Origin: Minisyncoccota bacterium | Lineage (GTDB): Bacteria; Patescibacteriota; Minisyncoccia; Phycocordibacterales; Phycocordibacteraceae | Direction of reading: 5' to 3' | NCBI GenBank assembly: GCA_036405415.1 | Contig: DASWXP010000002.1 | Location: forward strand, 556,450-620,449 | Length of the DNA stretch: 64,000 bases | In this document: piece after piece, positions 757 through 41,487 of the stretch | Numbering within the stretch: position 1 is the stretch's first letter | Layout of the letters: every line of letters begins with the position of its first letter | Notes under the pieces: model-generated | Seen by the model: the letters and a program-made list of their open reading frames with translations, nothing else | What the model was told of the DNA's origin: nothing | Databases searched by the model: none | Program-made: the position numbers and the translations under genes

Positions 757-759
757 GCT

Positions 760-25103: not shown

Positions 25104-25147
25104 AATATAGATATCTCGTCTCGTATCAAAGAGATTAGATAAAACGT

Positions 25148-25310: not shown

Positions 25311-25348
25311 CGAGCCCTACATACCTATATATAGATATGTAGGGCTCG
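25311..25348 (+). repeat. 38-bp near-perfect palindrome centred on CTATATATAG
   Basis: cgagccctacata-c-ctatatatag-a-tatgtagggctcg; candidate operator. Confidence 0.45.
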
Positions 25349-25687
25349 TACAAATTAAACTTCTGCGCGCAATTACTAATAAATACTTAGTTAGTCCGAA
25401 TAACCGATACGCTCCTATATATAATTGTCTACTTACACACGAAACTAGTTCTGGTAGGAATTTTGTATCCCTTCTGTTGCAAGGGAGTTGAATCTAAGGG
25501 TGGTAATTCTCTTGGATTTGAGTTTAGTGTCTATGCTGCGATGAATTTTTTCGTAATCAGTAGTAATGGATCTTGTTGGCAATTTTTTTCATGATGAGTG
25601 CCTGAAGAATATCCACAAAGAAACATACTAATTAAAAGAAATATCAAGGTAAACTGTAGTTAATTCGGATATCCGACCTACTGCACC

Positions 25688-28600
25688 TTGAACAAACTTC
25701 TTCAAGAAAAATTAATTTCTACGAAAGACGCCTCTGCTCTTTCTGGATACACTTCCGACTATCTTTCACGGCTATGTCGCGAAGGAAAGATTGATGGCAC
25801 GCAGGTCGGAAGAACATGGCTTGTAGATCGTGATTCGCTTGAGAAGTTTATTGCAACGCAGATTGATCGAAAGGCTGAGCTTGCAGAATCGCTTGCACGC
25901 GAGCGCGAGCGCGAGTATCGCTTGAGCAACACGAAATCCATCTCGATGACTCGTTCGATGGAGCGGGGAACGCGGGATGCGGTCAACTCTGTGGTTGCAG
26001 CGTTTGCAAAGGCACGGCTGCCTCACGGTATGCCGGCATTCTCAGGGACTGCTGTTGCTATGGCACTTACCGCAATCGTACTTGCTGGTAGCGCAGCAGC
26101 CGCAGGATCTGGAGTGGTCGCGCGCATGGGTGCCGGTCTTCTCGCGGCAGCGCTCGAGGCTCGAGTCCAGGTACTTGAAGGAGCACACTCACTTGCGATT
26201 GATTCATTAGCGCATCGAGAGACGCTTGCAGAGACAGCGCGCGAAGACCTTGCGCTTGATGAGAATGCATTTGCAAACGTGCAGAGCATAAAGCTTGAAG
26301 AAGTGTCTTCGGCACTTACGCTAGCGATGCGCGACGTGCATGCCCCCGTAGCCCCAACGCAGATTGCATACGAGCGCGCAGAAGAAATCTCTGCTACCTA
26401 TGCGAGCGATACTACGTTTGCAGAAAGCGCAAAGGCAATTGGATCGGCAGTACAGAATCCTAACGTTACAGCCTCTGTTGTGGCTGATGGTCTTATGCGC
26501 ACCTACGCATCGGTTGGTGCGCTTGCGCTCCGCGACATTGAGACGACGCTAAGCGCACATGAGGATGCGGTCACTGCAGCAGGCGAAGGATTGTTCGCGC
26601 TAAGCACCGGCATGCGCGATGGTGCACGTACGCTACCGCTTGCGGTAGGAAGTGCTTTCATAAGAGCGAGCGACGCGTCATTGAGTCTCTACGAACAGGG
26701 TGTCTATGGGTTCGCAGCGCTCTCCCAGGATGTCCCGCATACTCTCGTTGCTGCAGCGCTCGATACTGGCTCCATGGTTGGGGGACTCACACAGCTTGCG
26801 GTCACAGCTGCCCCTCGAGCGTATGAAGATGGGATGATTTCATTCAGTGAGGAGACCTCGCAGCTTGGAATGCGCATATCTGAAGGATCCTTTGCGCTCG
26901 GGGCCAATTCACACGGTCTCGTTTCAGGCCTCTTGATCGCTGAAGACCGCGCAATCGCAGGATTCATGCGCTCTGCTAGCGATACGGTTGCTCTAGCTCC
27001 CGCAGGTACCGGAAGCGCTTCAGCACAGCAGGGAATCGATCTGGTACCAAGCGCCATAACGAACGAAGTGCTGGGAATCGTAGGCAATATCGCGCTCTCG
27101 ATCGAGAACCTGGAGGGAGACATGCTTACCGCGTCTCCGCTCGCGTCTCTTAACCTCGACGCATTCGTTCCAGGATTCCTCAAGAATGTGACCGCGGTGC
27201 TTGCTCGCGCATTTGATAGCGCGCTCCATGGAATCCTCGGACCGCTCGCGGGCTTCTTTGGCGCAGGCGAAGAGGCGGGCATCGCGATCATTCCTGGAGA
27301 CGGTGCGAACATCCCGGGTCCTGGTGACCGCGGCTCGAGTGAGGCTTCGATCGTGTACAACGGGCCGGTAACAATCATCCGTAATGAGTATCCTTCCGTA
27401 ACCTACGGAGGTGTACCTCAGGCATACGTCGATGAACGATTCGACTTCCTCCGTCGCACGCTCTACAACCGCATCGAAGACGTTGCTGATGACGATGATG
27501 TCGGCATCACGACGCTCGACGGCCAGACCGGCAATGACATGTTGCTTAATAATCCGACGATCGTCGGAGGGACCATCACCGACAGCGAACTCGATGTCGC
27601 AACCTCGACCGTAACCGGCTCGTTCACCGTAAACGGGAACGCATCGATCACCGGCGACCTCACTGCTACGAATGCAACCACGACGAATTTCTACGCGACT
27701 GCCGGCTCCTTCGCCTCGGCGACCATCGATGTGCTTACCGCGCCGTCTGCGACCATAGCGAATCTCATCGTCACGAACAGCACCACCACGAACGCGACGT
27801 CGACCAATCTCTACGTTTCCAATCTCGCAGGCCTCGTAGCGACGATTACCGATGCGTTCTTTACGAACGTCACCGCATCGCTCGCGACGCTCACGAACGC
27901 GGTCGTAACGACGCTCACCGCTACGAATGCGACACTCACGAACGCCACGTCGACCAACGCGACCACCACCGGGTCGCTCGCGCTTACGTACGTGACCCCG
28001 TCACGCCTCCTGTCCGTAGACGCGTTCGGGAAAGTCGTCGCGACCAATCTCGCGTCATGGGTAACCGGCTCAGCGAACCAGATCACGGTGACGGATACGG
28101 GCGCAGGCGGCATCCAGCTCTCGCTCCCGTCAGTACTCGTCTTCGGCACATCCTCTCCGACCACGCTTGCCGGAAACGGCGCTACCAGCACCTTCGGCGG
28201 CGGCATCTACGCGCCGCGCATCGAGGCGGGAGAGTACATCGCAGGCCCGTACGTCCTCGCCACCTCGACCACCGCAACCTCGGCGTTCTCAGGCAACATA
28301 GCGATCGGTCGGAACGCCACGATCGGTACCAGCGCGTCCGATTCGCTCGTCGTGAATGCGACCGTCGGCTCTAACTTCGTCCCGTCTCTTAATAACGCGT
28401 ACGATCTTGGCTCCGCCGCGAATAACTGGCGCCGTATCTACGTAGATGAAGTGGTAGCGAACAACCTCTCCGCAGCGTCCACCTCGATCGCAGGGACGGT
28501 ATCGAGCGACTTCTCCATAAACTCTGATAACGCTTCGAACGATACGGAGGACATGAGCCTCACGTTCAATCGCGGCGTCGCGTCCCCGAACGCTATCCTC

Positions 28601-31600
28601 GCGTGGAACAGCACGACGAAGCGCTTCGAGTTCAACATGCCGGTCTTCTCCGCAAACGGCATCTTCACAAACGCGACCACGAGTAACCTAGCCGTTACGA
28701 ACTTCACGCTCGGCGGTTCCACCTTTACCTCGCTCCTCGGATCAGGACTCTCGAACGTTGGGGGCGCACTTACCGCAGACCTCGGCGCGCTCGACGACAC
28801 GTTCTTCAGGCAGGACGGGAACTCTTTCGGCGCTACCGCAATCCTTGGCACGAACGACAATAACAATCTCGCGTTTGAGACGAACGGGTCCACGAAGATG
28901 ACCCTCCTTGCCAACGGCTACCTCGGTATCGGCACCACCTCTCCGACGACCCCGCTTTACGTCTCGAGCGACTTCCCGCGCATCACCATCGACAGGAATA
29001 CGAACAACAGCGGCAACTCGCTCATACTCTTCAACCAGGAGTCCGTACTCAAGGCCGGGATAGGAATCGCCGGAGGAACCAACGGCGTGATTGCTGGAAG
29101 CGTATCCGGAGACCTCGTCGCGCGCACTCAGGGAGGGAACATGTACTTCTCGAACGATGGCACGGGAGCGACCTCGCAGCTCTCGATTATCAATAACGGG
29201 AACGTCGGTATCGGTACCGTGACGCCATCGACGCTCTTGCATCTTCATACGGCCGGCGGAGGTGACGCACCTCGCCTTAAGTTCACGAACGGCACCACCG
29301 GCACGACCGCGACAGACGGCGCGTTCGTGGGCATCTCGAACACCTCGCAGCTCGATGTGTGGAACTTCGAGAGCAATTCCTTGCGGTTTGCCACAGCGAA
29401 CACCCTGCGGATGGTAATCGATGCTACGGGAAATGTAGGAGTAGGAACCTCGTCTCCAGCTTTCGCGGCGATATCAGCCCGGTATCTGGCGGTTGACGGG
29501 TCAAGTCTCGGAGCGGATATTCCTGGTGCGGTCGGTGCCGGAGGCAACATCACAGGAACTACGAATAACATCGGCCAGTTTGCGTTCTACAACAACGCGC
29601 TTTCAACCGCAGAGAAGCGCAACGCGACGATTGTAGGAACGAACGACGGGGCGCTCAATAGCGGTCTCATCAGATTCTTCACGGCGAATGCGGGCACGCT
29701 AGGCGAACGCATGCGCATCACGTCAACCGGCAACATCGGTATCGGCACCACAACTCCGGATCGAATGCTCTCTGTGGCGGGTACGGGACTCTTCACCGGC
29801 CTCACGACCTTCCTCTCCGGCTTTGACATCGGAGGCTCGACGTTCACGTCGCTTCTCGGGAGCGGCCTCACTAACGTAGGCGGCGCGCTTACGCTTGACC
29901 GCACGGGAGACTGGACCGGAACATTCGATGGACAGGAGGGGTCGTACTATCTTGCGCGCGCGAACCATACCGGTACGCAGCTAGCGTCTACCATCTCTGA
30001 TTTCGCAAGCACCGCGCGCGGACTCTTCAGCTCGACCGCGACGGGCCTTACCTATACTTCAGGCACGGGCGTCTTTTCTCTGACATCAGGCTACGAGATT
30101 CCGCTGACCGCTTCAACTACCAATTGGAACACCTTCTATAACACCCCTTCGACCCGCATCACCGCAGGTTCTGGCCTTGCATGGGCAGGCAACACGCTCT
30201 CAGCAGACCTTAATACCCTCGACGACACGTTCTTCAGGCAAGACGGCAATTCCTTCGGAACGACCGCAACGCTTGGTACGAATGACAGCAATGCGCTCGC
30301 ACTTGAGACCAATGGATCAACCCGGCTCACCATCACGTCCTCAGGGAACGTCGGTATCGGAACGAGCTCGCCGACGCATGCACTGTCCGTAAACGGAAAT
30401 GCCTATATACAAGGAGGAATCGGAAGCGGCATCGAGCCGGCTTCAGTGCCGGGCATACTCTTGCTTAACCGCACGGGCGGCGATCCGGCCATAGTGTTCT
30501 ACGAGAATGGTTCCCAGGTCGGACAGCTGCGCGGAGACGGCACCAACAACAAGATCCAGTTCAGTAACGCGCTCGCAACCCGCTTCCCGTTCACTCTTGA
30601 TCTGACGACAGAGAACATCGGTATCGGCACCACAACTCCGGAGGGCCGCCTTACGCTTGTGGCGAGCTCGACAGGAGACTCGCTTGTCATCGCAAGCTCG
30701 ACCGGCGCTCGGCAGCTTACGGTCAATACGAATGGCTCCCTAATCTTCTCTTCAAGCGGGCAGTCCTACAAGCAGGTTACGGGCGTAGATGAGGACGGGC
30801 CTTCGATCTTCCTTAACCGCACGCTCGGCAATGAAGCCACGGCAAACGAGCACGGCATCATAGACCGCAACACCTTCACGCGCGCGACCAAGGCCTATAA
30901 CTCGTACGACTCACAGCCGTACTTTACGGGTACGAACGACTACGATCACTACGCAGGATTCCAAGCCCGGGGCGCGATGAACTCGACCGGCACGCTCAGC
31001 CGTTATCACGGCTTCGCATCGACGCCGAATGTCGCCGCTGGTACGGTGACGAACCTGTACGGCTACAGCGTCTACGACGCGGTCGGTGCCGGAACGGTGA
31101 CGAACAACTACGGCCTCCACGTACAGAACCTTACGAAGGGAACGAATAACTTCGCGATATACACCGACGGAACTACAAAGTCCTATTTCGGCGGAAACGT
31201 CGGCATCGGTACCACATCTCCAGCGTCACTACTCCACGTCTCTTCTAACACATCTACGAGTTTTACCGTCGAGCGCGATAGCGTTACTGATCCTGGAAAG
31301 ATCCAGCTCATTACTGAATCGGCAGAGAACAGCATTTACTCGAGAACTAACACAACAGCCGCAAAGAACTTGCGATTTGTAATCGGTACTGCCGAGCGAA
31401 TGCGCATCGATACGTTAGGCAATGTCGGTATCGGAACGACGTCGCCATCCCGACTGCTCTCCGTTGGTGATGACGGAACATACTCCGCGTACTTCTCCGG
31501 TCGCGTGGGTATCGGAACGACATCGCCTACCCGCGGTCTAGTTCTTACTTCTGCAACAACGGTTAACGCAGCCCTCCAGCTTGCTTATACGGCCTCAGGC

Positions 31601-34600
31601 GGACGCACCTGGGACATCAATCCGTTCCGAAACGGCGTGAGCAATGCCGGATTCGAGATTTACGATGTCACCGCAGGAGCGAGCCGCATTGCGATTGACG
31701 CGTCAGGGAACGTAGGTATCGGCACTACATCTCCTTCTGCGAAGCTTGATGTGTACGGGAACGCAATCCTTTCATCGGCAGGCTCTACCCTCAGTTTCGT
31801 TAAGAGCGGCGCAGGAGAGACGCCTGCAATCCTCTTTACGCACTCGACGAATGCCGGCGGCTCCCGCATAGTCTCGAGCGGCTCGAACGCGCAGGCGCTG
31901 ATCATCGATCTTGATCAAGATGCAACCTCAAATTTCGATGCATTCAGCATCAGGGCGAACAATACGAGCACGCGATTCCACATTGATAATGCGGGGAATG
32001 TCGGTATCGGCACCACATCTCCATTCGCCAAGCTTCATGTATATGGCGGCGCATCAGGAGTTACTACGCCTTCTGCTACCGCAGACGATTTCGTTGTTGA
32101 AGGCAGCTCGACGAGCCAGAACGGCTTTTCGCTCCTCGGTCCCGACAGCGCGTACGCTTACCAAGTATTCGGTTCTCCCTCAGACAGCTTTGGCGCGTTC
32201 TCGCGGTGGAACTTTAATAATAAGCTTTTTGAAATAGGAACCGCAGATGACACCGGTGCCGCAGACCTTGCCTTCGTGACCGGAAACTCTTCCGAGAAAA
32301 TGCGCATTCTTGATAATGGGAATGTCGGTATCGGCACAACCACGCCAGGGCAGCTGCTCCATGTATATGGCGGAACGAACCCGGCTATCCGCGTTACCGG
32401 AAGCGGCAACACGAGCGCGTACATGGACATTGCAACCGATGGAACCGGCACGGCTCAGACGCGATACATAACAGGGAATACGGCACGGTGGGCCGTAGGT
32501 GTCGACCCGGCAGCGAATAACAATTTCGTGTTCGCGAATAGCTCCGCTGTTACGAGCGGTCAAAGGATGGTGCTTACGACTTCTGGAAATCTCGGTATCG
32601 GCACTGTCGCGCCGCAGACGGCACTTTCTTTCGCGACAACGTCTGCCGCATCCGGCATAACGCTCTATCAGACAGCTGACGAGACGACGAATTACGCGCG
32701 GGGACGCATGTACTACAACGGAAGCGTGTTTACGCTTCGCACGGAAAAGGCAGGATCAGGAGCCGATACGCCGCTCAGTATCTACCCATCAAACGGCATC
32801 GCGAATATCTACTTCTCAACATTAGGCACAGATGGAAATACCGGCTTCGTGCAGATCGGCGCTGCCAATAACACACAGAACCGCATCAGCGTGCATCTCG
32901 GTGTCGGCTCGCACGGCGCTTCTGTAGGAACGCAGACACAGGTCGCTATCCAGCCTACGATTGCGCAGGCTGGAACTGCGAACTACATTGCGCTCTCCAT
33001 CAAGCCGACCGAATCATCGCTCGGATCCGGAAGCAGCTATCTGTTCCAGGCGGGGACCGCAGCCAATCCTGGGATGTTTAACATCACGAATGCTGGAAAC
33101 GTGGGTATTGGAAACTCGAATCCTGGCTCGCTTCTGAATGTTTCTACCGATACGGTCGGCGCAGCAGCTTTCATGGTCAATACTGTAACGGGGGGCCAGG
33201 CACGATGGCAGATTACAGCGGCAGGTTCGCCAACAACCTCGCGCTTCATAATGTCTGCGCGAGACAGCTCGAACAACACTGCTGTGTCCATCGATCCAAC
33301 GGGAACAACCTATTTCAATACTGGAGGCAATTTCGGTATTGGCACTTCCAGCCCGTCACGCAAGCTTACGGTTGAAGGCGACGCATCTGTCTTGTTCCGC
33401 CTCGATCGAACCACGACGGTTAACAGCTATAATACGATTCAATTCAACAGCCCTTGGACAGGTGGAAGCTACACAGCACAGATAGGAACGAAGGCAGAAA
33501 GTACGTATGCCAATAGCTACACGTACATCTCGGCTGATAATACGAACATTCACCTCGCGGTAACCACTGCGGGTAACGTGGGCATCGGCACCGTCAGTCC
33601 AACCGACAAGCTTGCGGTGCTCGGAGACACGAATGGATACATAAACGCTCGCGTACGCAATGATAATGCCGGATCTTCAGCGTATGCGATGATCGGCATC
33701 AATGCTTCAGGCAACTCCTGGGGCATGCGCATGGGGTCTGCAGCAAACAACAGCAACAGGCTTGATTTCGTCTCAGACGCCTTCGGTACGCCTGTAGAAA
33801 GGTTGAGCATCACGACAGCAGGAAACGTCGGTATAGGTACCACGACTCCTACCGCACTGTTCCAGGTAGGAAGCGCGACTCAACGCGGCTTCAAAGTGTA
33901 TGGAAATAATAGTCCTTATGGGACGGTGCTCGCCGGTGATGCTGGTGGTTGGGCGTTTGGGTATAATTTTGAAGGTAATGCAGGAGCAGCTCTCGGTGGA
34001 TTCGGAGCGTTAGGGAACTCAAATAGCCTGGACAGTTACTATATCGGTACGTTCGCGAATCAGAGGATGACTATCCTTAGCGGGGGTAATGTCGGTATCG
34101 GGACTACAAGCCCGTACGCTGGACTCACGATTGCCCGCGGAGGCGGTACTGCAGCATTTGCCGACACAATCCTTTCGCTAAACAGCTCATCGAATGTTGA
34201 GCGATTCAGATTCTCCGGAGACGGTTCGATGCAGTGGGGAACAGGTGCGGCAAACGGCATCCTTTCTTGGGATACAAATCTCGCGATAGTGGGGGGAAGC
34301 GCAGGGAACGCCCTTTCTCTACGTGCGAACAATGCAGACGTTGTCCGCATAACAACTGCAGGCAACGTCGGCATCGGCAACTCGGCGCCAACCACACCAC
34401 TTGATACGCAGGGCATAATCACGACGCGCTCCGCGGCAGCGGATACGCCGGGCGCGCCAACCGAAAGCATTCGCATGTCGCTTACGGGATATTCGCCAAC
34501 AGACAGATATAGGAATTCGATATTCAACTCGGTATCGACCATCCCCGCTTCTTCGGTAATGCAGTTCAGGGTTAATAATGGTGATACGACGCAGGCGACG

Positions 34601-37600
34601 GTAATGACGCTGCTGGGCAATGGAAACGTAGGCGTCGGCATCACGAATCCAAGCTACCGATTCACCGTTCAGGATACGACGACAGACGGTATCGCAGGAC
34701 GATTCTCTCAGTCAGGAACGGGCACGCCCTTTGGTGTCTACTCGTCAGCAACAGGCGCGGGAACGCAGAACGTTGCCGGCTACTTCCAGACAAGCGGCGC
34801 AACTACGAATATCGGCGTAAGTGCTGACGTTGCGTCAGGCGCGAACAACTACGCCTTCTACGCAGCCAATACTGCAAAATCGTACTTCGCAGGCAACGTC
34901 GGCATCGGCGTTACGAGTCCCGCAAGCCAACTCACGGTTGGAAAGACAACCGGAGGTGTCATATCGATCACGACCGCAGGAACCGCGGGTACCACCGCCT
35001 CGCCGCTTCCGGCGACCCTCAACTTCGTTGGGTACGGAGAAGTCACCAAGGGCGCTATCAGCGTGCAGGACCGAACCGGAAACGTCCTCGGAGGATGGAT
35101 GAAGTTCCAGACCGCCGACAGCTCTGACGTGCTTCAGGACCGAGTAATGATAGATAGGGCGGGCAACTTCGGTATCAATACGATGACGCCGCAGGCAACG
35201 CTCGTGGTGGGCGGCGCGCAGAGCGGCAATGCAGGCCTCGAGATCGTTCCAGGCTCCGGCATCGTCGCGCAGTCGTACAACCGAAACACAAGCGCGTATG
35301 CAAGCCTCAGCTTCGACGCGTCAGCAATCGCATTCCGCCCGAGCGGCTCGACCATGCTTACGGTCAACGGCGCAGGAGCTGCGGTGGGAACCGCGAGCGT
35401 CTCTGACCGCTTCGTCGTGGAGGTCGCGACCAATAAGCGTCTCGGTGTAGAAGAGATCACGAGCTCGGCAATCAGCGACTTCTCGACGGGCGGCGCGAGC
35501 ATCCAGTTCTCGCGCGCGAGCGATGGGGCAGATAACCTGACCGGTATATTCACCTACAACAATTCCGGAAACACGAGCATTAACCTCGCCATGGCAGCAC
35601 GCAGCGACTTGGTGTTCGCAGCTGGCGGAGGCGCAGCGTACACGAACTCTCCAGAGCGCATGCGCATAACGAGTTCCGGTAACGTCGGTATCGCTACGTC
35701 CACTCCTGGCCAGGCGCTCACGGTTGCAGGAAGCACGTACATAACCGGAGGTCTTGGCATCGGTAACGTCAACACGACTGCAGGCTCGCTCCTCACCACC
35801 TCGCACATAACGATGGGAACGCTCTCGCAGTTCTCTGCTGCAGGCGGCTCAGCACTCACGTCGCCAGCAAACGGCGTATGGCGCGTAACCAACAACGCAG
35901 GAACCGACTTCAGTCGCTTCCAGTTCGGCGGAGGCACTTCAGCATTCCCGTCTATCAAGCGCAATGGCGCAGGTCTCGACTTCCGCCTGGCGGATGATTC
36001 CGGATATGCGACCACGACCCATCAGGGCGGTCTCTTCCTTGGAAATGTCGGTGTGGGAACCACGACGCCAGGGTACAGGCTTAGTGTTGGAGGCGATATC
36101 AATTTTACCGGCAGCCTTTATCAGAACGGCGTCGCGTTCGGCGGCTCGTCACAGTGGACGACGAGCGGAAGTAACATCTACTACAACACTGGCAATGTCT
36201 CGATTGGTACGACCACAACGTCATCCACAACGAAGCTCTTCGTGGTAGGTCCGAACACTGGTACTGTCGCATTCTCGGTTGGCGATAGGTTTAGGGTTGA
36301 TGGCCTAGGAAATCTTTTCTGGGGCCAAACCGCAGGAACTGTTAGCGGCATTCTTTCATCTGCTGCGAATGGTGACGTAACGATGGGTTCTCAGTTTGCT
36401 AATAGAGACTTGTACATTCAGACAAGTGCATTTAACGCTATCCAAATCTACGGAGGTGTTACCGGCACGCTAGGAAACATCAAGCTTGGCGCATATGGAG
36501 CGGGTACACTCCAGACAGACGGTGCCGGAAACGTCACTGCTTCATCGGATGAGCGCCTCAAGGATATTCAAGGCAATTTCTCGAGAGGGCTTGCAGATCT
36601 CATGGCCATAAATCCGATTAATTACCGATGGAACGCAGCTTCAGGGTTCGATACTGAAGGCATGTACAGCGGATTCTCAGCACAGAACGTCAAAGATTCT
36701 ATCCCTGAAGCGGTAGGAACAGATCCGAGGGGATATCTGACGTTGTCGGATCGACCAATACTTGCTGCTACCGTGAACGCAGTGAAGGAGCTCAATGTCC
36801 GCACGCTTTCACTCGCACCAGCGGCTCAGAACCAGGAAGCACACTCGCTCGCGGTATCCGCAGACGCGTCCGTAGCAGGCCTCCTCACGGTCTCCGGCAC
36901 CGGCTCATTCCTCGGTACCGTAGAAGCAGCGTCATTCCTGACGACTGCAGACGCAGGACTTCCTGAGAACGTGCTCACGGCAGGTCAGGCAGACCTCTAC
37001 AAGATGGCGCGCTTCGCCATCTCAGAGATCAAGGACCTCAAGGAGCGCACGGACCTCCTTGCGGTACGCATCGACGACATCGAGACCCGTGTTGCCGCGC
37101 TCGAGGCACAGGGACAGAGCGCCTCCTCGACCATGGCCGGGGCCGTTGGCCTCACGGCAAGTTCCCTCAAGAGCGCGCTCGAATCCTTCGGTATCTTCAT
37201 CGAGAACGGCATCGCGCAGTTCAATACGCTCGTATTCCGACAGCTCGCGGTTGCCAAGGACGAAGCGGGCGACTCTTCCGCAGGCAGCGTAACCATCCTC
37301 GCGGGCAACACCGTGACGCAGGTGCAGAACCCGTACGTGCTCCCGACCTCAAAGGTATTCGTCACCTTCACGAGCCCGGTGGTTGGCGCGTGGTACATCA
37401 GCCACAAGGAAGCAGGCAGCTTCCGCGTGACGCTCGCCGAGTCCCAGCCTTCTGACGTCTCCTTCGACTACTTCATCCTCCAGACCGAAGGCCAGCTCGC
37501 AAGCCCGGGCGCCGCAGGACCGAGTCAGCAGAACCAGGTCCCGACGCCGGCACCGCAGCCGTTCCAGCCGGTGTTCCCGCAGGACGGGGGAACCACGACG

Positions 37601-37981
37601 CCAGCAACCTCAGGCGACACCACGCCGCCATCCATCTCGCTTAACGGAAGCGCCGCTATCGAAGTAGGGCAGGGAGGCTCTTGGAACGATCAGGGCGCAA
37701 CAGCTTCAGACGACGTTGACGGCGACCTCTCGAGCCATATTCAGGTATCAGGCTCCGTTGATACGGCAACGCCTGGCCTCTACACCGTCACGTACTCCGT
37801 ATCGGACGCTGCGGGTAATCAGGCGAACGTATCACGCATCGTGACGGTTACTGCAGCGCCACAGGCACCAGCACCAGCTCCAGCTCCGGCTCCGGTGCCT
37901 ACACCGACTCCGGAACCAGCTCCGGCTCCAGCACCTGAACCTGCTCCAGCTCCGGAACCAGCACCGGCACCCTCCGTATAG
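25688..37981 (+). CDS. giant (4097-aa) membrane-anchored surface fibre protein: N-terminal HTH_17-like module, TM helix, T/N-rich region, ~25 GNVGIGTTSP repeats, Peptidase_S74-like intramolecular chaperone domain, coiled coil, DUF5011 Ig-like domain, Pro/Ala/Glu tail
   Basis: Single uninterrupted ORF; only available start is TTG 25688 (in-frame TAA at 25661); domain calls from motif recognition (see findings). Confidence 0.7.
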   Translation: MNKLLQEKLISTKDASALSGYTSDYLSRLCREGKIDGTQVGRTWLVDRDSLEKFIATQIDRKAELAESLAREREREYRLSNTKSISMTRSMERGTRDAVNSVVAAFAKARLPHGMPAFSGTAVAMALTAIVLAGSAAAAGSGVVARMGAGLLAAALEARVQVLEGAHSLAIDSLAHRETLAETAREDLALDENAFANVQSIKLEEVSSALTLAMRDVHAPVAPTQIAYERAEEISATYASDTTFAESAKAIGSAVQNPNVTASVVADGLMRTYASVGALALRDIETTLSAHEDAVTAAGEGLFALSTGMRDGARTLPLAVGSAFIRASDASLSLYEQGVYGFAALSQDVPHTLVAAALDTGSMVGGLTQLAVTAAPRAYEDGMISFSEETSQLGMRISEGSFALGANSHGLVSGLLIAEDRAIAGFMRSASDTVALAPAGTGSASAQQGIDLVPSAITNEVLGIVGNIALSIENLEGDMLTASPLASLNLDAFVPGFLKNVTAVLARAFDSALHGILGPLAGFFGAGEEAGIAIIPGDGANIPGPGDRGSSEASIVYNGPVTIIRNEYPSVTYGGVPQAYVDERFDFLRRTLYNRIEDVADDDDVGITTLDGQTGNDMLLNNPTIVGGTITDSELDVATSTVTGSFTVNGNASITGDLTATNATTTNFYATAGSFASATIDVLTAPSATIANLIVTNSTTTNATSTNLYVSNLAGLVATITDAFFTNVTASLATLTNAVVTTLTATNATLTNATSTNATTTGSLALTYVTPSRLLSVDAFGKVVATNLASWVTGSANQITVTDTGAGGIQLSLPSVLVFGTSSPTTLAGNGATSTFGGGIYAPRIEAGEYIAGPYVLATSTTATSAFSGNIAIGRNATIGTSASDSLVVNATVGSNFVPSLNNAYDLGSAANNWRRIYVDEVVANNLSAASTSIAGTVSSDFSINSDNASNDTEDMSLTFNRGVASPNAILAWNSTTKRFEFNMPVFSANGIFTNATTSNLAVTNFTLGGSTFTSLLGSGLSNVGGALTADLGALDDTFFRQDGNSFGATAILGTNDNNNLAFETNGSTKMTLLANGYLGIGTTSPTTPLYVSSDFPRITIDRNTNNSGNSLILFNQESVLKAGIGIAGGTNGVIAGSVSGDLVARTQGGNMYFSNDGTGATSQLSIINNGNVGIGTVTPSTLLHLHTAGGGDAPRLKFTNGTTGTTATDGAFVGISNTSQLDVWNFESNSLRFATANTLRMVIDATGNVGVGTSSPAFAAISARYLAVDGSSLGADIPGAVGAGGNITGTTNNIGQFAFYNNALSTAEKRNATIVGTNDGALNSGLIRFFTANAGTLGERMRITSTGNIGIGTTTPDRMLSVAGTGLFTGLTTFLSGFDIGGSTFTSLLGSGLTNVGGALTLDRTGDWTGTFDGQEGSYYLARANHTGTQLASTISDFASTARGLFSSTATGLTYTSGTGVFSLTSGYEIPLTASTTNWNTFYNTPSTRITAGSGLAWAGNTLSADLNTLDDTFFRQDGNSFGTTATLGTNDSNALALETNGSTRLTITSSGNVGIGTSSPTHALSVNGNAYIQGGIGSGIEPASVPGILLLNRTGGDPAIVFYENGSQVGQLRGDGTNNKIQFSNALATRFPFTLDLTTENIGIGTTTPEGRLTLVASSTGDSLVIASSTGARQLTVNTNGSLIFSSSGQSYKQVTGVDEDGPSIFLNRTLGNEATANEHGIIDRNTFTRATKAYNSYDSQPYFTGTNDYDHYAGFQARGAMNSTGTLSRYHGFASTPNVAAGTVTNLYGYSVYDAVGAGTVTNNYGLHVQNLTKGTNNFAIYTDGTTKSYFGGNVGIGTTSPASLLHVSSNTSTSFTVERDSVTDPGKIQLITESAENSIYSRTNTTAAKNLRFVIGTAERMRIDTLGNVGIGTTSPSRLLSVGDDGTYSAYFSGRVGIGTTSPTRGLVLTSATTVNAALQLAYTASGGRTWDINPFRNGVSNAGFEIYDVTAGASRIAIDASGNVGIGTTSPSAKLDVYGNAILSSAGSTLSFVKSGAGETPAILFTHSTNAGGSRIVSSGSNAQALIIDLDQDATSNFDAFSIRANNTSTRFHIDNAGNVGIGTTSPFAKLHVYGGASGVTTPSATADDFVVEGSSTSQNGFSLLGPDSAYAYQVFGSPSDSFGAFSRWNFNNKLFEIGTADDTGAADLAFVTGNSSEKMRILDNGNVGIGTTTPGQLLHVYGGTNPAIRVTGSGNTSAYMDIATDGTGTAQTRYITGNTARWAVGVDPAANNNFVFANSSAVTSGQRMVLTTSGNLGIGTVAPQTALSFATTSAASGITLYQTADETTNYARGRMYYNGSVFTLRTEKAGSGADTPLSIYPSNGIANIYFSTLGTDGNTGFVQIGAANNTQNRISVHLGVGSHGASVGTQTQVAIQPTIAQAGTANYIALSIKPTESSLGSGSSYLFQAGTAANPGMFNITNAGNVGIGNSNPGSLLNVSTDTVGAAAFMVNTVTGGQARWQITAAGSPTTSRFIMSARDSSNNTAVSIDPTGTTYFNTGGNFGIGTSSPSRKLTVEGDASVLFRLDRTTTVNSYNTIQFNSPWTGGSYTAQIGTKAESTYANSYTYISADNTNIHLAVTTAGNVGIGTVSPTDKLAVLGDTNGYINARVRNDNAGSSAYAMIGINASGNSWGMRMGSAANNSNRLDFVSDAFGTPVERLSITTAGNVGIGTTTPTALFQVGSATQRGFKVYGNNSPYGTVLAGDAGGWAFGYNFEGNAGAALGGFGALGNSNSLDSYYIGTFANQRMTILSGGNVGIGTTSPYAGLTIARGGGTAAFADTILSLNSSSNVERFRFSGDGSMQWGTGAANGILSWDTNLAIVGGSAGNALSLRANNADVVRITTAGNVGIGNSAPTTPLDTQGIITTRSAAADTPGAPTESIRMSLTGYSPTDRYRNSIFNSVSTIPASSVMQFRVNNGDTTQATVMTLLGNGNVGVGITNPSYRFTVQDTTTDGIAGRFSQSGTGTPFGVYSSATGAGTQNVAGYFQTSGATTNIGVSADVASGANNYAFYAANTAKSYFAGNVGIGVTSPASQLTVGKTTGGVISITTAGTAGTTASPLPATLNFVGYGEVTKGAISVQDRTGNVLGGWMKFQTADSSDVLQDRVMIDRAGNFGINTMTPQATLVVGGAQSGNAGLEIVPGSGIVAQSYNRNTSAYASLSFDASAIAFRPSGSTMLTVNGAGAAVGTASVSDRFVVEVATNKRLGVEEITSSAISDFSTGGASIQFSRASDGADNLTGIFTYNNSGNTSINLAMAARSDLVFAAGGGAAYTNSPERMRITSSGNVGIATSTPGQALTVAGSTYITGGLGIGNVNTTAGSLLTTSHITMGTLSQFSAAGGSALTSPANGVWRVTNNAGTDFSRFQFGGGTSAFPSIKRNGAGLDFRLADDSGYATTTHQGGLFLGNVGVGTTTPGYRLSVGGDINFTGSLYQNGVAFGGSSQWTTSGSNIYYNTGNVSIGTTTTSSTTKLFVVGPNTGTVAFSVGDRFRVDGLGNLFWGQTAGTVSGILSSAANGDVTMGSQFANRDLYIQTSAFNAIQIYGGVTGTLGNIKLGAYGAGTLQTDGAGNVTASSDERLKDIQGNFSRGLADLMAINPINYRWNAASGFDTEGMYSGFSAQNVKDSIPEAVGTDPRGYLTLSDRPILAATVNAVKELNVRTLSLAPAAQNQEAHSLAVSADASVAGLLTVSGTGSFLGTVEAASFLTTADAGLPENVLTAGQADLYKMARFAISEIKDLKERTDLLAVRIDDIETRVAALEAQGQSASSTMAGAVGLTASSLKSALESFGIFIENGIAQFNTLVFRQLAVAKDEAGDSSAGSVTILAGNTVTQVQNPYVLPTSKVFVTFTSPVVGAWYISHKEAGSFRVTLAESQPSDVSFDYFILQTEGQLASPGAAGPSQQNQVPTPAPQPFQPVFPQDGGTTTPATSGDTTPPSISLNGSAAIEVGQGGSWNDQGATASDDVDGDLSSHIQVSGSVDTATPGLYTVTYSVSDAAGNQANVSRIVTVTAAPQAPAPAPAPAPVPTPTPEPAPAPAPEPAPAPEPAPAPSV
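28900..36250 (+). repeat. about 25 degenerate coding repeats (~240-300 nt each) each containing a G-N-[VIL]-G-[IV]-G-T-T-[ST]-P motif
   Basis: Motif recurrences read directly from translation (e.g. GNVGIGTTSPASLLHV, GNVGIGTTSPSRLLSV, GNVGIGTTSPFAKLHV). Confidence 0.7.
36542..36810 (+). other. Peptidase_S74-like intramolecular chaperone/autoprotease domain (tail-fibre/endosialidase C-terminal chaperone type)
   Basis: ASSDERLKDIQGNF...LMAINPINYRW...GFSAQNVKDSIPEAV matches the conserved SDxRLK Ser-Lys dyad region of S74 domains. Confidence 0.6.
37624..37852 (+). other. DUF5011-type bacterial Ig-like domain
   Basis: PPSISLNGSAAIEVGQGGSWNDQGATASDDVDGDLSSHIQVSGSVDTATPGLYTVTYSVSDAAGNQANVSRIVTV. 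Confidence 0.55.
37856..37978 (+). repeat. Pro/Ala/Glu-rich C-terminal tail encoded by short tandem ccagct/ccggct/ccggaa units
   Basis: APQAPAPAPAPAPVPTPTPEPAPAPAPEPAPAPEPAPAPSV. Confidence 0.5.
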
Positions 37982-38034: not shown

Positions 38035-39045
38035 ATGGCCATTCGGGTAGCGATTAACGGTTTCGGGCGCATCGGCAGGGCATTCGTCCGGCAGACATGG
38101 GATAACCCGGAGATAGAGCTCGTGGCCATTAACGATCTCGGTTCCGCAGAGAATCTCGCGTATCTCCTCAAGTTCGATACGGTATACGGCCGAGCGCCGT
38201 TCCCGGTCTTGTGGAAGGAAGGCGCGCTCTCGATCAACGAGAAGGAGGTCCGTTTCCTCTCAGAGAAGGACCCCGCGCTCCTTCCCTGGAAGGATATGCA
38301 GGTAGACGTAGTAGTCGAGGCGACCGGGTTCTTCACGGACTATGAGAAAGCGAACGCGCACGTTACCGCAGGCGCCCGCCGCGTCGTCATCACGGGACCG
38401 GTGAAGGAAGAGCATCCCTTGGGCGCGACCATCCTCATGGGGCTCGACGAATCAAAGCTCGCTACCTGCCCGATAACGAGTAACGCCTCCTGCACTACCA
38501 ACTCCGCGTCTCCGGTGATCGCCATCCTCGACGAGGCGCTCGGCATCGAGAAGGCCGTGCTCTCGACCACGCACGCCTACACCGCGAGCCAGTCCATCGT
38601 GGACGGTCCGTCCAAGAAGGACCTCAAGGAGGGCAGGGCAGCGGCGCAGAACATCGTGCCGACCTCTACCGGCGCTGCGGTCGCGGTAACGAAGGCATAC
38701 CCGTCGCTTTCCGGGAAGTTCGACGGCATCTCGCTTCGCGTTCCGGTTCCGGCAGGCTCCATCGCGGACATAACCTTCATCGCCAAGCGCCCGACAACCG
38801 CGGAAGAAGTGAACGACATCCTCCGGAAGGCGGCTGAGCTCCCGCGCTGGCAGGGCATCTTCCGGGCTTCGGACGAGGAGTACGTCTCGAGCGACATCGT
38901 GGGCGAGCACGCCGCTTCCATCGCGGACCTCGGCATGACGCGCGTCGTGGACGGGAACCTCGTGAAGGTGCTCGCGTGGTACGACAACGAGGCCGGATAT
39001 ACGGCGACCCTGGTGCAGCACGTGCTCAAGGCAGGCGCGGCGTAA
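38035..39045 (+). CDS. gap: glyceraldehyde-3-phosphate dehydrogenase
   Basis: VAINGFGRIGR, SNASCTTN, catalytic Cys context. Confidence 0.9.
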   Translation: MAIRVAINGFGRIGRAFVRQTWDNPEIELVAINDLGSAENLAYLLKFDTVYGRAPFPVLWKEGALSINEKEVRFLSEKDPALLPWKDMQVDVVVEATGFFTDYEKANAHVTAGARRVVITGPVKEEHPLGATILMGLDESKLATCPITSNASCTTNSASPVIAILDEALGIEKAVLSTTHAYTASQSIVDGPSKKDLKEGRAAAQNIVPTSTGAAVAVTKAYPSLSGKFDGISLRVPVPAGSIADITFIAKRPTTAEEVNDILRKAAELPRWQGIFRASDEEYVSSDIVGEHAASIADLGMTRVVDGNLVKVLAWYDNEAGYTATLVQHVLKAGAA

Positions 39046-39063
39046 AACTCACACATTGACGCA

Positions 39064-39090
39064 GATACCACGCGCTATGCGCGTGGTATC
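39064..39090 (+). terminator. 12-bp perfect stem hairpin with 3-nt loop, followed by U-rich tcttattat
   Basis: gataccacgcgc-tat-gcgcgtggtatc. Confidence 0.5.
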
Positions 39091-39100
39091 GTCTTATTAT

Positions 39101-39490
39101 ATGGAACCCGTATCTCAAGCCGACCCTACCGAGCCTCGCACGAGAAGAGTCTTTATCATAATCTCCACCGTAGCGGTGCTCGCTGTCATAGTCGCAGGAG
39201 CGGCATACATGGCCTTCAATCCAAAAGAGAAGGAGGTCACGCTCATACGGAACTTCGCGTGTGCGGACGGTTCGCGGTATCTCGTGATCGACAATACGGA
39301 CAAGATTACCGTGTCCGGTCAGGAATTCGCCCGCGCCGGAGAGTCAGTGCCAGCTCGATACGAAAACGGCACGGATATAGCATTCGTGCTTAGCGAAGAC
39401 ACACTCGCAGTCGTTAACAATAAGACTGAGGAGTCCATCGCGACCTGCACAGCCCAGGCGGCTGAAGTTGATTTCGTAAAGGAGCAATAA
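39101..39490 (+). CDS. hypothetical single-pass membrane protein
   Basis: TM helix VFIIISTVAVLAVIVAGAAYMAF; start ATG 39101 chosen to sit after the terminator hairpin. Confidence 0.35.
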   Translation: MEPVSQADPTEPRTRRVFIIISTVAVLAVIVAGAAYMAFNPKEKEVTLIRNFACADGSRYLVIDNTDKITVSGQEFARAGESVPARYENGTDIAFVLSEDTLAVVNNKTEESIATCTAQAAEVDFVKEQ

Positions 39491-39498
39491 CGGAGCAT

Positions 39499-40992
39499 AT
39501 GAAAACCACACTATTCGCAAGAATCATCTCAGCTTCCTCAGCGCTTGCTCTGGCGACTCTCATTTTCTTCATGGCAGCTACGAATGCGCTTGCCTGCGGG
39601 ATGACCTGTAATGGGGACTACTTCGCTGCTGGTACGCCCGGAGCAGTTGCAGAGACGGGCAGGTACGACACGGCGGTGTGCATGGGGTCTGTCTCGATAG
39701 AAGAATGTCCTGGCGGAACCGATTATGGAGGCGGGGGCGGAGGTGGTGGTGGCGGAGGCGGCAGCTATGTCGACCTTACCGCAAGCGACATAACACCGGT
39801 CATCACGACTAGCGGCGAAGCACAGACATACTACGCAACCGTCTATAACGGCCCGACGATCGCAGGGAACACTACGACCCTGTTCCAGCGGACCGAGAAT
39901 CCCGGTGACGTGAGCGCGCCAGTGGTGAGTATGGTCGCGACAGCGAGCATGAACCCATACTCAGCGCGCACCTTGTCGGCAAGCTATACCCGTACGGGCG
40001 GTTCGTTCTACATGCGCGCATGCGCAGACGCGAACAATCAGATCGCCGAGATCAACGAGAATAACAACTGCGGTCCGTGGACGCTCATAACCGTCATGCC
40101 TTCTGCGCAGCAGGCGGATCTCGTCGCAGGAAGCGTGAGCGTCTCGAACGCGGTCCAAGGCGCGGCTGCGACCCTGAGCGCGAGCGCGTCGAATATCGGT
40201 GCTGGCGCGTCCGATAGCTTCCCGCTCTTGTTCCAGATCTCAGAGACCGGAGCACGCACTAACAGCGCGTACCTCGGGGGACTCGGTTCCGGCGCTTCTG
40301 CGGGCGGTACCGGCTCGTACAAGTTCCCGGATTTCGGGGTGTACAACGTGCGAGCCTGCGCGAACTTCGACACGGCCTGGAATCCGGTCGCGGCCGAATC
40401 GAGCACCGCGAACAACTGCGGTCCGTGGACCGAGGTCACGGTCTCGCCCGTGGTAACGCCGGCGCTCTCGTGCTCCGTATCGGCGACATCGGTAGCGGTT
40501 GGCGGATCGGTCACCTATAGCGCGAACCCGTCAGGAGGCGCCTCTGGTCCCTACACCTGGACCGCGTCTGACGGCGGGAGCTACGGAACCGGCTCGACCG
40601 CATCCCGATCCTTCAGCGCTCCCGGCACGTACGCGATGAACGTCGATACGTCCTCGACCGCGGTATCCTACTGCCCGAACGTGAGCGTCGTATCGACCGC
40701 ATGTAGCGCTGCGACAACTGATCTCTCCATAACCGCGACCCCGTCACGCGTGCGTGCGGGACAGACCTCGACCATCTCCTGGACCGCGTCCGGCGTGAAC
40801 GGCGAAGGCGCAAGCTGCACCGTCTCGGGCCCTGGCGTCTCCTGGACCTCAAGCGTAACGGCAGCGCCGCAGTGTTCCGCAGGCGGATCCTCAAGCGCTA
40901 CGATCGCGACCCAGAGCACCTACACCATCACGTGCGCCGGCCAGTCCGAGAGCGTCGTGGTGAACGTGATTCCGCAGATCATCGAGTTCTAG
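39499..40992 (+). CDS. secreted CARDB-domain adhesin-like protein A (Gly12 tract; C-terminal Cys-containing module ending NVIPQIIEF)
   Basis: Signal peptide, NNCGPWT motifs twice, C-terminal ~300 aa paralogous to the protein at 49982..51940. Confidence 0.6.
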   Translation: MKTTLFARIISASSALALATLIFFMAATNALACGMTCNGDYFAAGTPGAVAETGRYDTAVCMGSVSIEECPGGTDYGGGGGGGGGGGGSYVDLTASDITPVITTSGEAQTYYATVYNGPTIAGNTTTLFQRTENPGDVSAPVVSMVATASMNPYSARTLSASYTRTGGSFYMRACADANNQIAEINENNNCGPWTLITVMPSAQQADLVAGSVSVSNAVQGAAATLSASASNIGAGASDSFPLLFQISETGARTNSAYLGGLGSGASAGGTGSYKFPDFGVYNVRACANFDTAWNPVAAESSTANNCGPWTEVTVSPVVTPALSCSVSATSVAVGGSVTYSANPSGGASGPYTWTASDGGSYGTGSTASRSFSAPGTYAMNVDTSSTAVSYCPNVSVVSTACSAATTDLSITATPSRVRAGQTSTISWTASGVNGEGASCTVSGPGVSWTSSVTAAPQCSAGGSSSATIATQSTYTITCAGQSESVVVNVIPQIIEF

Positions 40993-40995
40993 TCC

Positions 40996-41487
40996 ATGCC
41001 CAAGGTATATATCGCGAGCGATCATACGGGATTCCTGCTCAAGGGAGAGCTCGTGACGTATCTCACCGAGACGCTCCTCTACGAGGTTGAGGATCTCGGT
41101 GCGCACGAACTCAATCCCGAAGATGATTATCCTGACCTCATAACGCCATGCGCGAAGAAGGTCGTAGGCACGCCTGACGCGCTCGGCATCGTGATCGGCG
41201 GATCAGGGCAAGGGGAAGCGGTTGCAGCGAACCGGGTCCCGGGCGTGCGCGCCGCGCTCTTCTACGGCGAGGCGCGGGCCGTAGGCGCTATCGACGCTGA
41301 AGGCGCCCCTGCGCTCGACGGCTACGATATCGTGCGCCTTGCGCGCGTGCACAACGATGCGAACGTACTTTCGCTTGCAGCGCGCTTCGTGGATACCGAC
41401 ACTGCTAAGGAGGCGGTGCGCATTTTCGTCTCGACGGCGTTCTCAGGCGTCGAGCGGCACCTGCGACGCATCAGAAAGCTCGGGTAG
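40996..41487 (+). CDS. rpiB: ribose-5-phosphate isomerase B (RpiB/LacAB family)
   Basis: KVYIASDHTGF...GIVIGGSGQGEAVAANR motifs. Confidence 0.8.
   Translation: MPKVYIASDHTGFLLKGELVTYLTETLLYEVEDLGAHELNPEDDYPDLITPCAKKVVGTPDALGIVIGGSGQGEAVAANRVPGVRAALFYGEARAVGAIDAEGAPALDGYDIVRLARVHNDANVLSLAARFVDTDTAKEAVRIFVSTAFSGVERHLRRIRKLG

Follow-up and report, generated by a model that had tools for sequence, protein, structure and literature searches.

A giant Patescibacteria surface fibre with an internal S74 chaperone domain and a conserved C-terminal module as its predicted assembly-and-release cassette

The window, a 64,000-nucleotide stretch of DNA from a Minisyncoccota bacterium, carries a giant fibre gene whose translation over the whole open reading frame yields a protein of 4097 residues (Table 1). 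Contigs of the same organism are also present in SRR11449180-82. The setting is chromosomal, with SecA, Obg and GatB encoded upstream and GAPDH and RpiB downstream, the GAPDH start lying 54 bp past the end of the fibre gene. No phage context is seen around the gene, and no immunity-like or partner gene lies beside it, the next gene being that for GAPDH. An Rfam scan of the window returns one tRNA and nothing else, a promoter scan of the spacer upstream of the fibre gene gives no more sites than chance, and an NCBIfam scan yields nothing informative. Patescibacteria (CPR) are mostly tiny obligate epibionts, and to our knowledge their host recognition and attachment are largely unknown.

Table 1. 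The fibre gene and its encoded features, in window coordinates
Feature	Position	Strand	Basis
Giant fibre gene	25688..37981	+	4097 codons + stop, TTG start
HTH_17 domain, N-terminal (aa 10-58)	25715..25861	+	29.9 bits vs cut-off 27
Single hydrophobic TM-like segment (aa 122-140)	26051..26107	+	Kyte-Doolittle hydropathy
Fibre shaft (aa 1077-3465)	28916..36082	+	21 capping-loop motifs
Hypervariable stretch, putative mature distal tip (aa ~3480-3619)	36125..36544	+	15-31% identity, largely unalignable
S74 / intramolecular chaperone domain (aa 3611-3709)	36518..36814	+	PF13884; pLDDT 94-97; Foldseek; profile matches
Ser3620 codon, predicted nucleophile	36545..36547	+	Pfam, alignments
Lys3625 codon, predicted general base of dyad	36560..36562	+	Alignments
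Second-S74-copy remnant (LPENVLTAGQADLYK...) running into helix, putative trimeric coiled coil (aa 3758-3815)	36959..37132	+	
Conserved beta-sandwich domain, no Pfam family (aa 3859-3934)	37262..37489	+	pLDDT >91
Bacterial surface Ig-like domain PF16403, formerly DUF5011 (aa 3983-4054)	37634..37849	+	79-83 bits
Pro/Ala/Glu low-complexity tail (aa 4055-4097)	37850..37978	+	Translation

The N-terminus of the fibre protein bears an HTH_17 domain, which is scored in a scan of the first 200 residues and presumably lies on the cytoplasmic side. Nine of ten N-termini scanned (the window and nine relatives) match HTH_17, six of them above the cut-off. The sole strongly hydrophobic stretch of the protein follows at aa 122-140, with a mean Kyte-Doolittle hydropathy of 1.91 over its 19 residues against 1.41 for the runner-up segment. 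This layout, HTH and then TM-like segment, is conserved in relatives. Further along, the shaft displays 21 copies of the capping-loop motif GNVGIGTTSPxxxL, commonly spaced by 75-108 residues (range 75-283), and the repeated capping-loop motif of S74 fibres has been defined as V-G-G/N-pi-x-x-P-x-x-x-L (PMC10769870). A profile of homologues also matches the stalks of Bdellovibrio MAT (mosaic adhesive trimer) fibre structures 8ond, 8ojn, 8oml and 8ol4. The 60 residues preceding Ser3620 reach a pLDDT of only 46-75 in the monomeric AlphaFold model.

Analysis of the region beyond the shaft reveals a genuine S74/CIMCD domain, as judged by sequence, profile and predicted fold, with its Ser-Lys dyad in place. 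PF13884 (Peptidase_S74) aligns to aa 3620-3676 at 31.1 bits (E 2.9e-7) when the whole protein is scanned and at 34.2 bits (E 3.1e-8) with the last 597 residues, above a gathering cut-off of 22 bits in both cases, and the alignment spans model positions 1-57 of 58. The motifs first noticed here read back from the translation of 36542-37981 and of the whole frame: ASSDERLKDIQ occupies aa 3618-3628, LMAINPINYRW aa 3638-3648 and GFSAQNVKDSIPEAV aa 3662-3676. The dyad consists of S3620 and K3625, five residues apart in SDxxxK spacing as SDERLK. Their counterparts are S911 and K916 in endoNF and S587 and K592 in MyRF, where S587A and K592A each abolish cleavage (PMC8326128); in the Bdellovibrio protein Bd3182 the corresponding serine is S782, and S782A blocks processing (PMC10769870). 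The predicted scissile bond is S3619-S3620, with ...GAGNVTAS ending the upstream side and SDERLKDIQGNFSR starting the downstream side, and a cut at this point is computed to separate a 478-residue, 49.0-kDa fragment from a 3619-residue, 369-kDa remainder.

Structural comparison supports the same assignment. The homologue profile matches solved S74 proteins, namely tail fibre 8jov (E 3e-14), the MyRF ICA 7dc3 (E 8e-10) and the phage S16 fibre 6f45 (E 2e-9). These structures are reached only with the profile; as a single sequence searched against PDB sequences, the last 597 residues return Ig-like domains only and no S74 protein. The AlphaFold model of the S74 part, with pLDDT of about 94-97, has chains A-C of 7dc3 as its top Foldseek matches (E 4e-5, probability 1.00, TM-score on target 0.52-0.56), while endoNF 3gw6 is matched weakly; the models are monomeric and the S74 active site is trimer-dependent.

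As the initial annotation stated, the domain is not terminal, and 388 residues extend past its predicted end at aa 3709. In this module a coiled coil is succeeded by a tailspike/H-lectin-like beta-sandwich, the PF16403 Ig-like domain and the Pro/Ala/Glu tail. The coiled coil, DUF5011 domain and Pro/Ala/Glu tail had been named beforehand, whereas the beta-sandwich had been missed. The coiled coil itself needs qualification: the model predicts a 46-residue helix (aa 3770-3815), but part of the region is what is left of a second S74 copy, and relatives carry a complete second copy (STRxxK) at this place. Profile matches of the coiled-coil region to designed trimeric coiled coils are weak. By structure comparison the beta-sandwich resembles H-type lectins and tailspike C-terminal domains, and helix and beta-sandwich together look like the C-termini of phage depolymerases, of tailspikes and of pyocin fibres. 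No toxin, enzyme or known signalling domain is detected in the module with Pfam or NCBIfam. Some aspects of this layout speak against release: unlike the phage and Bdellovibrio proteins, the fibre protein does not end with its S74 domain, and for a chaperone that is simply discarded, about 390 additional, well-conserved residues are a large number in so small a genome, a hint of some further role. Because it resembles receptor-binding or lectin domains, the beta-sandwich might be the functional tip.

Giant HTH- and TM-anchored fibres in at least 112 Patescibacteria genomes terminate in this same C-terminal module. Wherever the sequence suffices, a self-cleaving domain precedes it, either S74 or, in 12 loci, Peptidase_G2, and every informative locus shows an S74, G2 or intein junction ahead of the module. 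Within this family a fragment of this kind is thus not unusually large, as had been supposed, since the module of about 390 residues recurs behind a cleaving domain throughout these genomes and MyRF already provides a case of an internal S74 domain (PMC8326128). Among alignments drawn from the window and 76 Patescibacteria loci, Ser and Lys are both kept in all 47 S74 first copies that cover the site, although the loci are related and do not amount to 47 independent events; this retention argues that the dyad is under selection. Neighbouring positions of the motif vary in the same alignments, the Asp position being D, S or T and the Arg position R, N, K, H, A, S or T. In the closest relative (L005) inspection and HMM show SDENLK, with Ser and Lys intact.

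Conservation along the chain changes abruptly. In comparisons with the closest relatives, aa 3501-3600 show 15-31% identity and the remainder of the chain, starting at aa 3601, shows 49-74%, with the single exception of a swapped S74 unit in one relative (L007, 35%), and among these sequences the alignable region opens about 10 residues before the catalytic Ser. On these alignments, the boundary between variable and conserved sequence falls at the predicted cleavage site, and the conservation pattern of the C-terminal module is that expected of an assembly cassette.

A Peptidase_G2 autochaperone like that of gp12, the pre-neck appendage protein of phi29 (PF11962; 3gqh), and unrelated to S74, occupies the S74 slot in the 12 loci; it is absent from the window, where S74 stands instead. 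Its DxAE motif is invariant in these loci. With E 8e-4 the G2 family profile finds 3gqh, a phi29 gp12 fragment whose first residue is the Asp of this motif, and with E 5e-6 the Dpo31 chaperone domain. PF11962 matches seven of nine G2 members, with Pfam scores mostly just below the curated cut-off, and single relatives give weak matches or none, so that the family alignment is required. The interchange of S74 and G2 in one slot is natural evidence for self-cleavage as the selected property. Inteins occur at the junction of fibre and module in 11 loci of relatives, and the Hint domains found there are complete inteins with both splice junctions present. The fibre protein itself matches neither Hint nor intein models, and searching the six-frame translation of the window with Int-N and Int-C queries gives no match.

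Known S74 systems share parts of this plan. The phage CIMCDs (MEROPS S74, PF13884; endosialidases, the T5 L-shaped tail fibre pb1, the GA-1 neck appendage) belong to the same Pfam family and share the Ser-x4-Lys dyad; in them the domain sits immediately behind a trimeric beta-helical fibre, as it probably does here, and in both the beta-rich core is followed by a helix or coiled coil. However, the phage domain ends its protein about 100-150 residues from the Ser, whereas 388 more residues follow the domain here, in a 4097-residue, chromosomal, membrane-anchored cellular protein without phage context. The MAT fibres of Bdellovibrio bacteriovorus in the S74 subgroup, such as Bd3182, are also cell-encoded and combine capping-loop repeats with an S74 domain; their Ser self-cleavage has been demonstrated experimentally and their mosaic tips described (PMC10769870). 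MAT proteins measure about 1000 residues, a quarter of the length seen here, begin with a signal peptide and a conserved domain, rich in beta structure and about 130 residues long, instead of HTH_17 and a TM-like segment, and end in the S74 domain, whereas the fibre protein has a conserved module past it; their host is a predatory proteobacterium rather than a member of the Patescibacteria.

The best structural match, the MyRF ICA (PDB 7dc3; PMC8326128), also belongs to a membrane-anchored protein with a DNA-binding-type domain and an internal S74 domain followed by a large C-terminal part. In MyRF the cut frees an N-terminal DNA-binding trimer from the membrane, whereas in the fibre protein the HTH lies on the opposite side of the TM segment from the S74 domain and about 3500 residues from the cut, and cleavage would for this reason free the C-terminal piece. 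No earlier description of S74 domains in Patescibacteria was found in the literature searched.

We consider it rather likely that the product of the gene is a surface fibre, trimeric and resembling a phage tail fibre, whose last 478 residues form a conserved assembly-and-release cassette. The fibre would be held by one N-terminal TM helix with the small HTH domain in the cytoplasm, and the cassette would comprise the S74 domain, the second-copy remnant, the coiled coil, the tailspike-like beta-sandwich, the Ig-like domain and the Pro/Ala/Glu tail. Following export, three chains would join into a trimer through the S74 and coiled-coil parts of their cassettes, and on this nucleus the beta-helical shaft would fold, beginning at the shaft's C-terminal end and proceeding towards the membrane. 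Once the trimer has folded, Lys3625 would activate Ser3620 to cut the S3619-S3620 bond, and departure of the 49-kDa (x3) cassette would uncover the hypervariable fibre end (aa ~3480-3619), where contact with a host or partner cell is likely to be made. Since the S74 domain is intact and a conserved lectin-like/Ig-like module comes after it, the assembled fibre is probably severed from that module. The release interpretation of the initial annotation finds partial, comparative support in the genuine internal S74 domain, the conserved dyad, the G2 substitution and the boundary at the site, while its emphasis on unusual size is dropped. Its suggestion of a secreted effector or signal finds no support: the module is conserved rather than polymorphic, contains no toxin or enzyme domain and has no immunity-like gene 3' of it. 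As read from sequence, the data fit a conserved cassette that exposes a variable tip, and an effector or signal fits less well.

Cleavage might instead liberate a working product, in that the 49-kDa trimeric fragment, envelope-held or secreted, would serve as a lectin/Ig-like protein and one gene would supply both a fibre that varies and a trimer that is conserved and either soluble or wall-bound. The large, well-folded module with its 49-74% identity is compatible with such a role, as are the likeness of its beta-sandwich to H-type lectins and tailspike C-terminal domains, the Ig-like surface domain, and the fact that some relatives even join module to fibre via inteins. An assembly module would, however, be conserved just as much, and the absence of enzyme, toxin or known signalling domains and of an adjoining partner or immunity gene leaves this outcome unlikely. 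Equally doubtful is the broader proposal of two products with separate roles, a hypervariable membrane-anchored host-contact fibre and a conserved trimeric lectin/Ig-like protein with its own role, the cassette possibly being exchangeable Patescibacteria-wide. The argument differs if nothing is released. The internal S74 domain would then be a trimerisation knot, uncleaved or cleaved but held, and the coiled coil, beta-sandwich and Ig-like domain would form the target-binding tip. The non-terminal position of the domain, the resemblance of helix and beta-sandwich to the way phage depolymerases, tailspikes and pyocin fibres end, and the common presence of Ig-like domains in adhesins accord with this. 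Yet neither Ser nor Lys changes where the residues around them do, an unrelated self-cleaving G2 domain with catalytic DxAE intact fills the same slot in relatives, and variability, which is expected of a receptor-binding tip, is lowest in the module and highest immediately upstream of it; a module that stays in place as the tip is accordingly quite improbable.

Polymorphic toxin systems include tail-fibre repeats and HINT peptidases (PMC3482391), and a giant repeat protein with a processing peptidase and a C-terminal piece would fit the layout of a filamentous carrier whose releasing peptidase delivers a C-terminal toxin. Compared with those systems, the C-terminus here is conserved and toxin-free, no immunity gene lies 3' where GAPDH is next, and the Hint domains of relatives are complete inteins; this reading is rejected as extremely improbable.

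Under the favoured assembly-and-release reading, the fibre gene belongs to a widespread, syntenic Patescibacteria family of giant fibres that follow the building principles of phage tail fibres, in which the base is conserved, shaft and tip are hypervariable, and the C-terminal cassette, again conserved, is predicted to cleave itself off. If cleavage proceeds as predicted, the exposed tip would be the variable residues just before Ser3620, singling out the segment to assay for host binding and the one to leave off for expression. The S74 chaperone/protease mechanism of phages, Bdellovibrio and animal MyRF would then extend to a third cellular setting, a trick of phages and a predator would reach ultrasmall symbiotic bacteria, and the leaving group would be unusually large.

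In some lineages of relatives the intein is split, with a gene cassette of 2.4-3.4 kb between the halves. The C-terminal cassette may there be separately encoded and attached by protein trans-splicing, which, if true, would provide a post-translational switch for fibre maturation. An apparent free-standing module gene of 362 residues (P0040) was rejected as an independent gene, because frameshifts and an intein break up the fibre gene at its locus (L085), which has the same synteny as the other fibre loci.

The interval 36542–37981 comprises the final 480 codons of a single forward-strand ORF (25688–37981, TTG start), which translates into a 4097-aa fibre protein. The initial annotation had recognized a Peptidase_S74 domain here from three quoted motifs, and this identity stands: ASSDERLKDIQ (aa 3618–3628), LMAINPINYRW (aa 3638–3648) and GFSAQNVKDSIPEAV (aa 3662–3676) are all present, while Pfam places Peptidase_S74 (PF13884) on aa 3620–3676 with 31–34 bits (E 3e-7 to 3e-8), above the curated cut-off of 22 bits. 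Ser3620 and Lys3625 are spaced S-x4-K, as a catalytic dyad requires, and a predicted cut before Ser3620 would yield a 478-aa fragment of 49 kDa and a 3619-aa remainder. A single-sequence search of PDB sequences missed S74 proteins; a profile built from 38 homologues matches the phage tail fibre 8jov, which carries SDERLK (E 3e-14), the MyRF ICA domain 7dc3 (E 8e-10) and the long tail fibre of phage S16, 6f45 (E 2e-9). In an AlphaFold model of aa 3560–3975, the S74 core reaches a pLDDT of 94–97, and the top Foldseek matches in the PDB are three MyRF ICA chains (probability 1.00, TM-score on target 0.52–0.56), followed more weakly by the endosialidase chaperone 3gw6. By sequence, profile and predicted fold, the domain is an S74 domain. 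MyRF, which must trimerise to be cleaved, is no longer cut when it carries S587A or K592A, the counterparts of S911 and K916 in endoNF (PMC8326128); processing of Bd3182 is blocked by S782A (PMC10769870).

Features of the fibre protein (residue numbers, aa) and of its surroundings (nucleotide positions in the window, or in the named locus of a relative)
Feature	Position	Strand	Remarks
304-aa ORF	24189–25103		just upstream of the giant gene; no Pfam match
AT-rich spacer	25104–25687		584 bp, 5' of the giant gene
Spacer hairpin 1, perfect	25148–25183		16-bp arms
Spacer hairpin 2, perfect	25310–25349		14-bp arms, 12-nt loop
HTH_17 to TM-like segment	25715–26107 (aa 10–140)		
HTH_17 domain	aa 10–58	+	29.9 bits, scan of first 200 aa
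Sole clearly hydrophobic, TM-like segment	aa 122–140	+	
Thr/Gly/Ala/Ser-rich shaft	aa 1077–3465	+	GNVGIGTTSPxxxL x21, spacing commonly 75–108 residues
End of S74 helix	~aa 3709	+	then poorly predicted linker
Remnant of second S74 copy, LPENVLTAGQADLYKMARF...	after linker, before 46-residue helix	+	
46-residue helix	aa 3770–3815	+	then short second helix
Beta-sandwich	aa 3859–3934	+	confidently predicted, without Pfam family
Pro-rich linker	between beta-sandwich and Ig-like domain	+	
Ig-like domain, PF16403 (former DUF5011)	aa 3983–4054	+	~80 bits, Pfam
Pro/Ala/Glu tail	after Ig-like domain	+	
CARDB protein	39499–40992		497 aa, two CARDB (cell-adhesion-related) domains; just downstream of the giant gene
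GAPDH/RpiB region	38035–41487		
GAPDH/RpiB region, locus L004	8134–9650		
GAPDH/RpiB region, locus L085	9677–11147		

The ~390 residues behind the S74 domain form a conserved module. A protein search with aa 3590–3965 returns 134 matches; where the source is named, it is nearly always a member of the Patescibacteria (Parcubacteria, Kaiserbacteria, Pacebacteria, Minisyncoccia). A profile of the 168-aa module (DLYK...FDYFxxQTEGQ; 67% mean column identity), run against a set with a single genome for each species, locates it in 112 genomes; among the 80 loci kept, every lineage-named record is Patescibacteria, and the module ends giant ORFs, many exceeding 3400 aa within the 10-kb flank. The stretch retained in the window only as a remnant corresponds, in many relatives, to the latter half of a further S74 copy that is complete there and has the motif STRxxK.

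Comparison across these loci suggests that selection acts on cleavage itself. An S74-region HMM aligned 47 first-copy domains (the window and 46 loci) over the catalytic positions; Ser and Lys are each present in 47 of 47, and the neighbouring positions drift, with D, S or T at the Asp position and R, N, K, H, A, S or T at the Arg position. In 12 loci, the slot 5' of the same module is filled by another domain, in which DxAE (DYAEYF and variants) is invariant. A profile of this domain hits the chaperone domain of the Dpo31 tailspike (E 5e-6) and 3gqh (E 8e-4), the fragment that the phi29 pre-neck appendage protein releases, whose chain starts at that very Asp; Pfam's Peptidase_G2 ("IMC autoproteolytic cleavage domain") matches seven of nine members of the group. 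Two unrelated self-cleaving chaperones sharing one slot are hard to explain unless cleavage matters. An S74 copy 1, a copy 2, a G2 domain or an intein junction precedes the module in every locus with enough upstream sequence, and L074 carries STREQK before it. The G2-type autochaperone, in DYAEYF or DVAEN form, lies ~300–450 aa upstream of the FDYF motif (L035, L036, L041, L046, L052, L056, L057, L058, L063, L070, L073 and L076); in L057, L063 and L070 it is followed by S74 copy 2.

Alignment of the window protein with its seven closest relatives in 100-residue windows reveals a mosaic. The membrane-proximal aa ~700–1100 share 62–74% identity with the five closest relatives and ~20–30% over most of their length with L040 and L022. 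Across shaft and tip (aa 1100–3600), identity falls to 11–50% in nearly all windows, with many gaps, and aa 3501–3600, at 15–31%, are among the lowest. From aa 3601 to the end it rises to 49–74% with the five closest relatives and to 38–64% with the more distant L040 and L022, the alignable region starting ~10 residues before the catalytic Ser. This is the pattern expected of phage fibres, namely a conserved attachment end, a variable binding end and a conserved chaperone, and the profile over 27785–36487 (aa ~700–3600) suggests that the shaft repeats are frequently exchanged or rapidly diverging. The exception within the conserved end is one exchanged S74 unit, in L007 (SDRRLK), with ~35% identity to window 36518–36814; LNVRTLSIAPAAQNQEAHSLAVSSDASI, directly after it, hardly differs between the two, so S74 units seem to move on their own, apart from the module behind them. 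In L023 (8912–11011), LVIVD/beta-propeller repeats replace the GNVGIG repeats just before S74, which illustrates that one cassette can carry different tips.

The best-supported reading, which we regard as probable, is that the last 478 residues form an assembly-and-release cassette that exposes a variable tip. The analysis shows what the domain is, its catalytic residues and predicted fold, the architecture and the conservation pattern; in the mechanism proposed from these, three cassettes would trimerise, the shaft would fold, Ser3620 with Lys3625 would cut the S3619–S3620 bond, and the cassette would depart, uncovering the tip. The fragment could instead be a working lectin- or Ig-like product, envelope-bound or secreted, a milder form of the "effector or signal" proposed in the initial annotation; this is compatible with cleavage, and we consider it possible but unlikely.

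That the module is itself the adhesive tip and is never released appears doubtful and quite improbable, as the catalytic dyad is invariant, G2 replaces S74 in relatives, and it is the region upstream that varies, whereas the module is conserved. A polymorphic-toxin-like system, the least credible alternative by far, was rejected because the module is conserved and lacks both a toxin domain and an adjacent immunity gene.

In 11 loci, an intein interrupts the fibre gene at the junction before the module; the window's own fibre gene has none. L043 (1–3450) carries a contiguous intein (Cys1, TxxH, ...HN|T) with an NYN domain inside, between S74 copies 1 and 2. Nine loci (L004, L014, L019, L029, L051, L055, L067, L072, L079) contain the same intein in split form, whose Int-N half closes the upstream giant ORF and whose Int-C half (…VYDIEVEGTHNFVGNxIFAHN|T) opens the downstream module ORF. 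Other genes of the same orientation fill the 2.4–3.4 kb between the halves; in L004 (1028–6682) they comprise one for a Bro-N protein plus ORFs of 450, 155 and 52 aa. The arrangement resembles a "fractured gene" whose pieces a split intein joins, and Int-C stands at the start of ~35 of 120 database homologues.

The proposed mechanism is the one known from the phage CIMCD/S74 family, and the Bdellovibrio MAT fibres are the closest cellular precedent: 13 of the 21 have S74 at their end, and Bd3182 has been demonstrated to undergo cleavage (PMC10769870). The shaft motif corresponds to the "capping loop" consensus V-G-G/N-pi-x-x-P-x-x-x-L known for S74 fibres of Bdellovibrio and for MyRF (PMC10769870), and a profile of homologues matches the solved MAT stalks 8ond, 8ojn, 8oml and 8ol4. 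The single feature unshared with phage and MAT S74 members is that the window's S74 is not at the protein end, for which MyRF is the closest precedent; where MAT fibres start with a signal peptide followed by a beta domain, the protein has an HTH and TM anchor. New are the Patescibacteria host lineage, the fibre size and its HTH and TM anchor, the conserved module behind the cleaving domain, the S74/G2 interchange in one slot and the inteins at the junction in relatives; no description of Patescibacteria fibres with these features was found in the literature searched. Its main interest is that it singles out which end of a widespread CPR surface fibre is likely to contact the host, in a form that a simple experiment could check.

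Each of the nine relatives with a complete N-terminus that was read begins HTH-like, as the window protein does, and also has a RARELA...EYR stretch and a hydrophobic segment; Pfam HTH_17 matches eight of them. In the window, this domain is of excisionase/MerR type and presumably lies on the cytoplasmic side, followed by the single TM-like segment; its role at the base of an extracellular fibre of 0.4 MDa could be that of a regulator tethered to the membrane, or simply that of an anchor. Housekeeping genes flank the fibre gene upstream (O-antigen-ligase-like protein, MurB, SecA, Obg, GatB) and downstream (GAPDH, CARDB protein, RpiB); it is chromosomal rather than prophage-borne. GAPDH and RpiB lie 3' of the fibre gene in the window, L004 and L085, and the fibre genes are one syntenic family; Rpe, transketolase and aldolase come next in both relatives. 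By this gene order, the fibre gene holds a fixed place beside a sugar-phosphate cluster. Promoter-like sites above chance were not found in the spacer, which falls in a 24–26 kb bin with GC ~0.45 against ~0.58 in the surroundings; its first hairpin is probably the terminator of the upstream gene.
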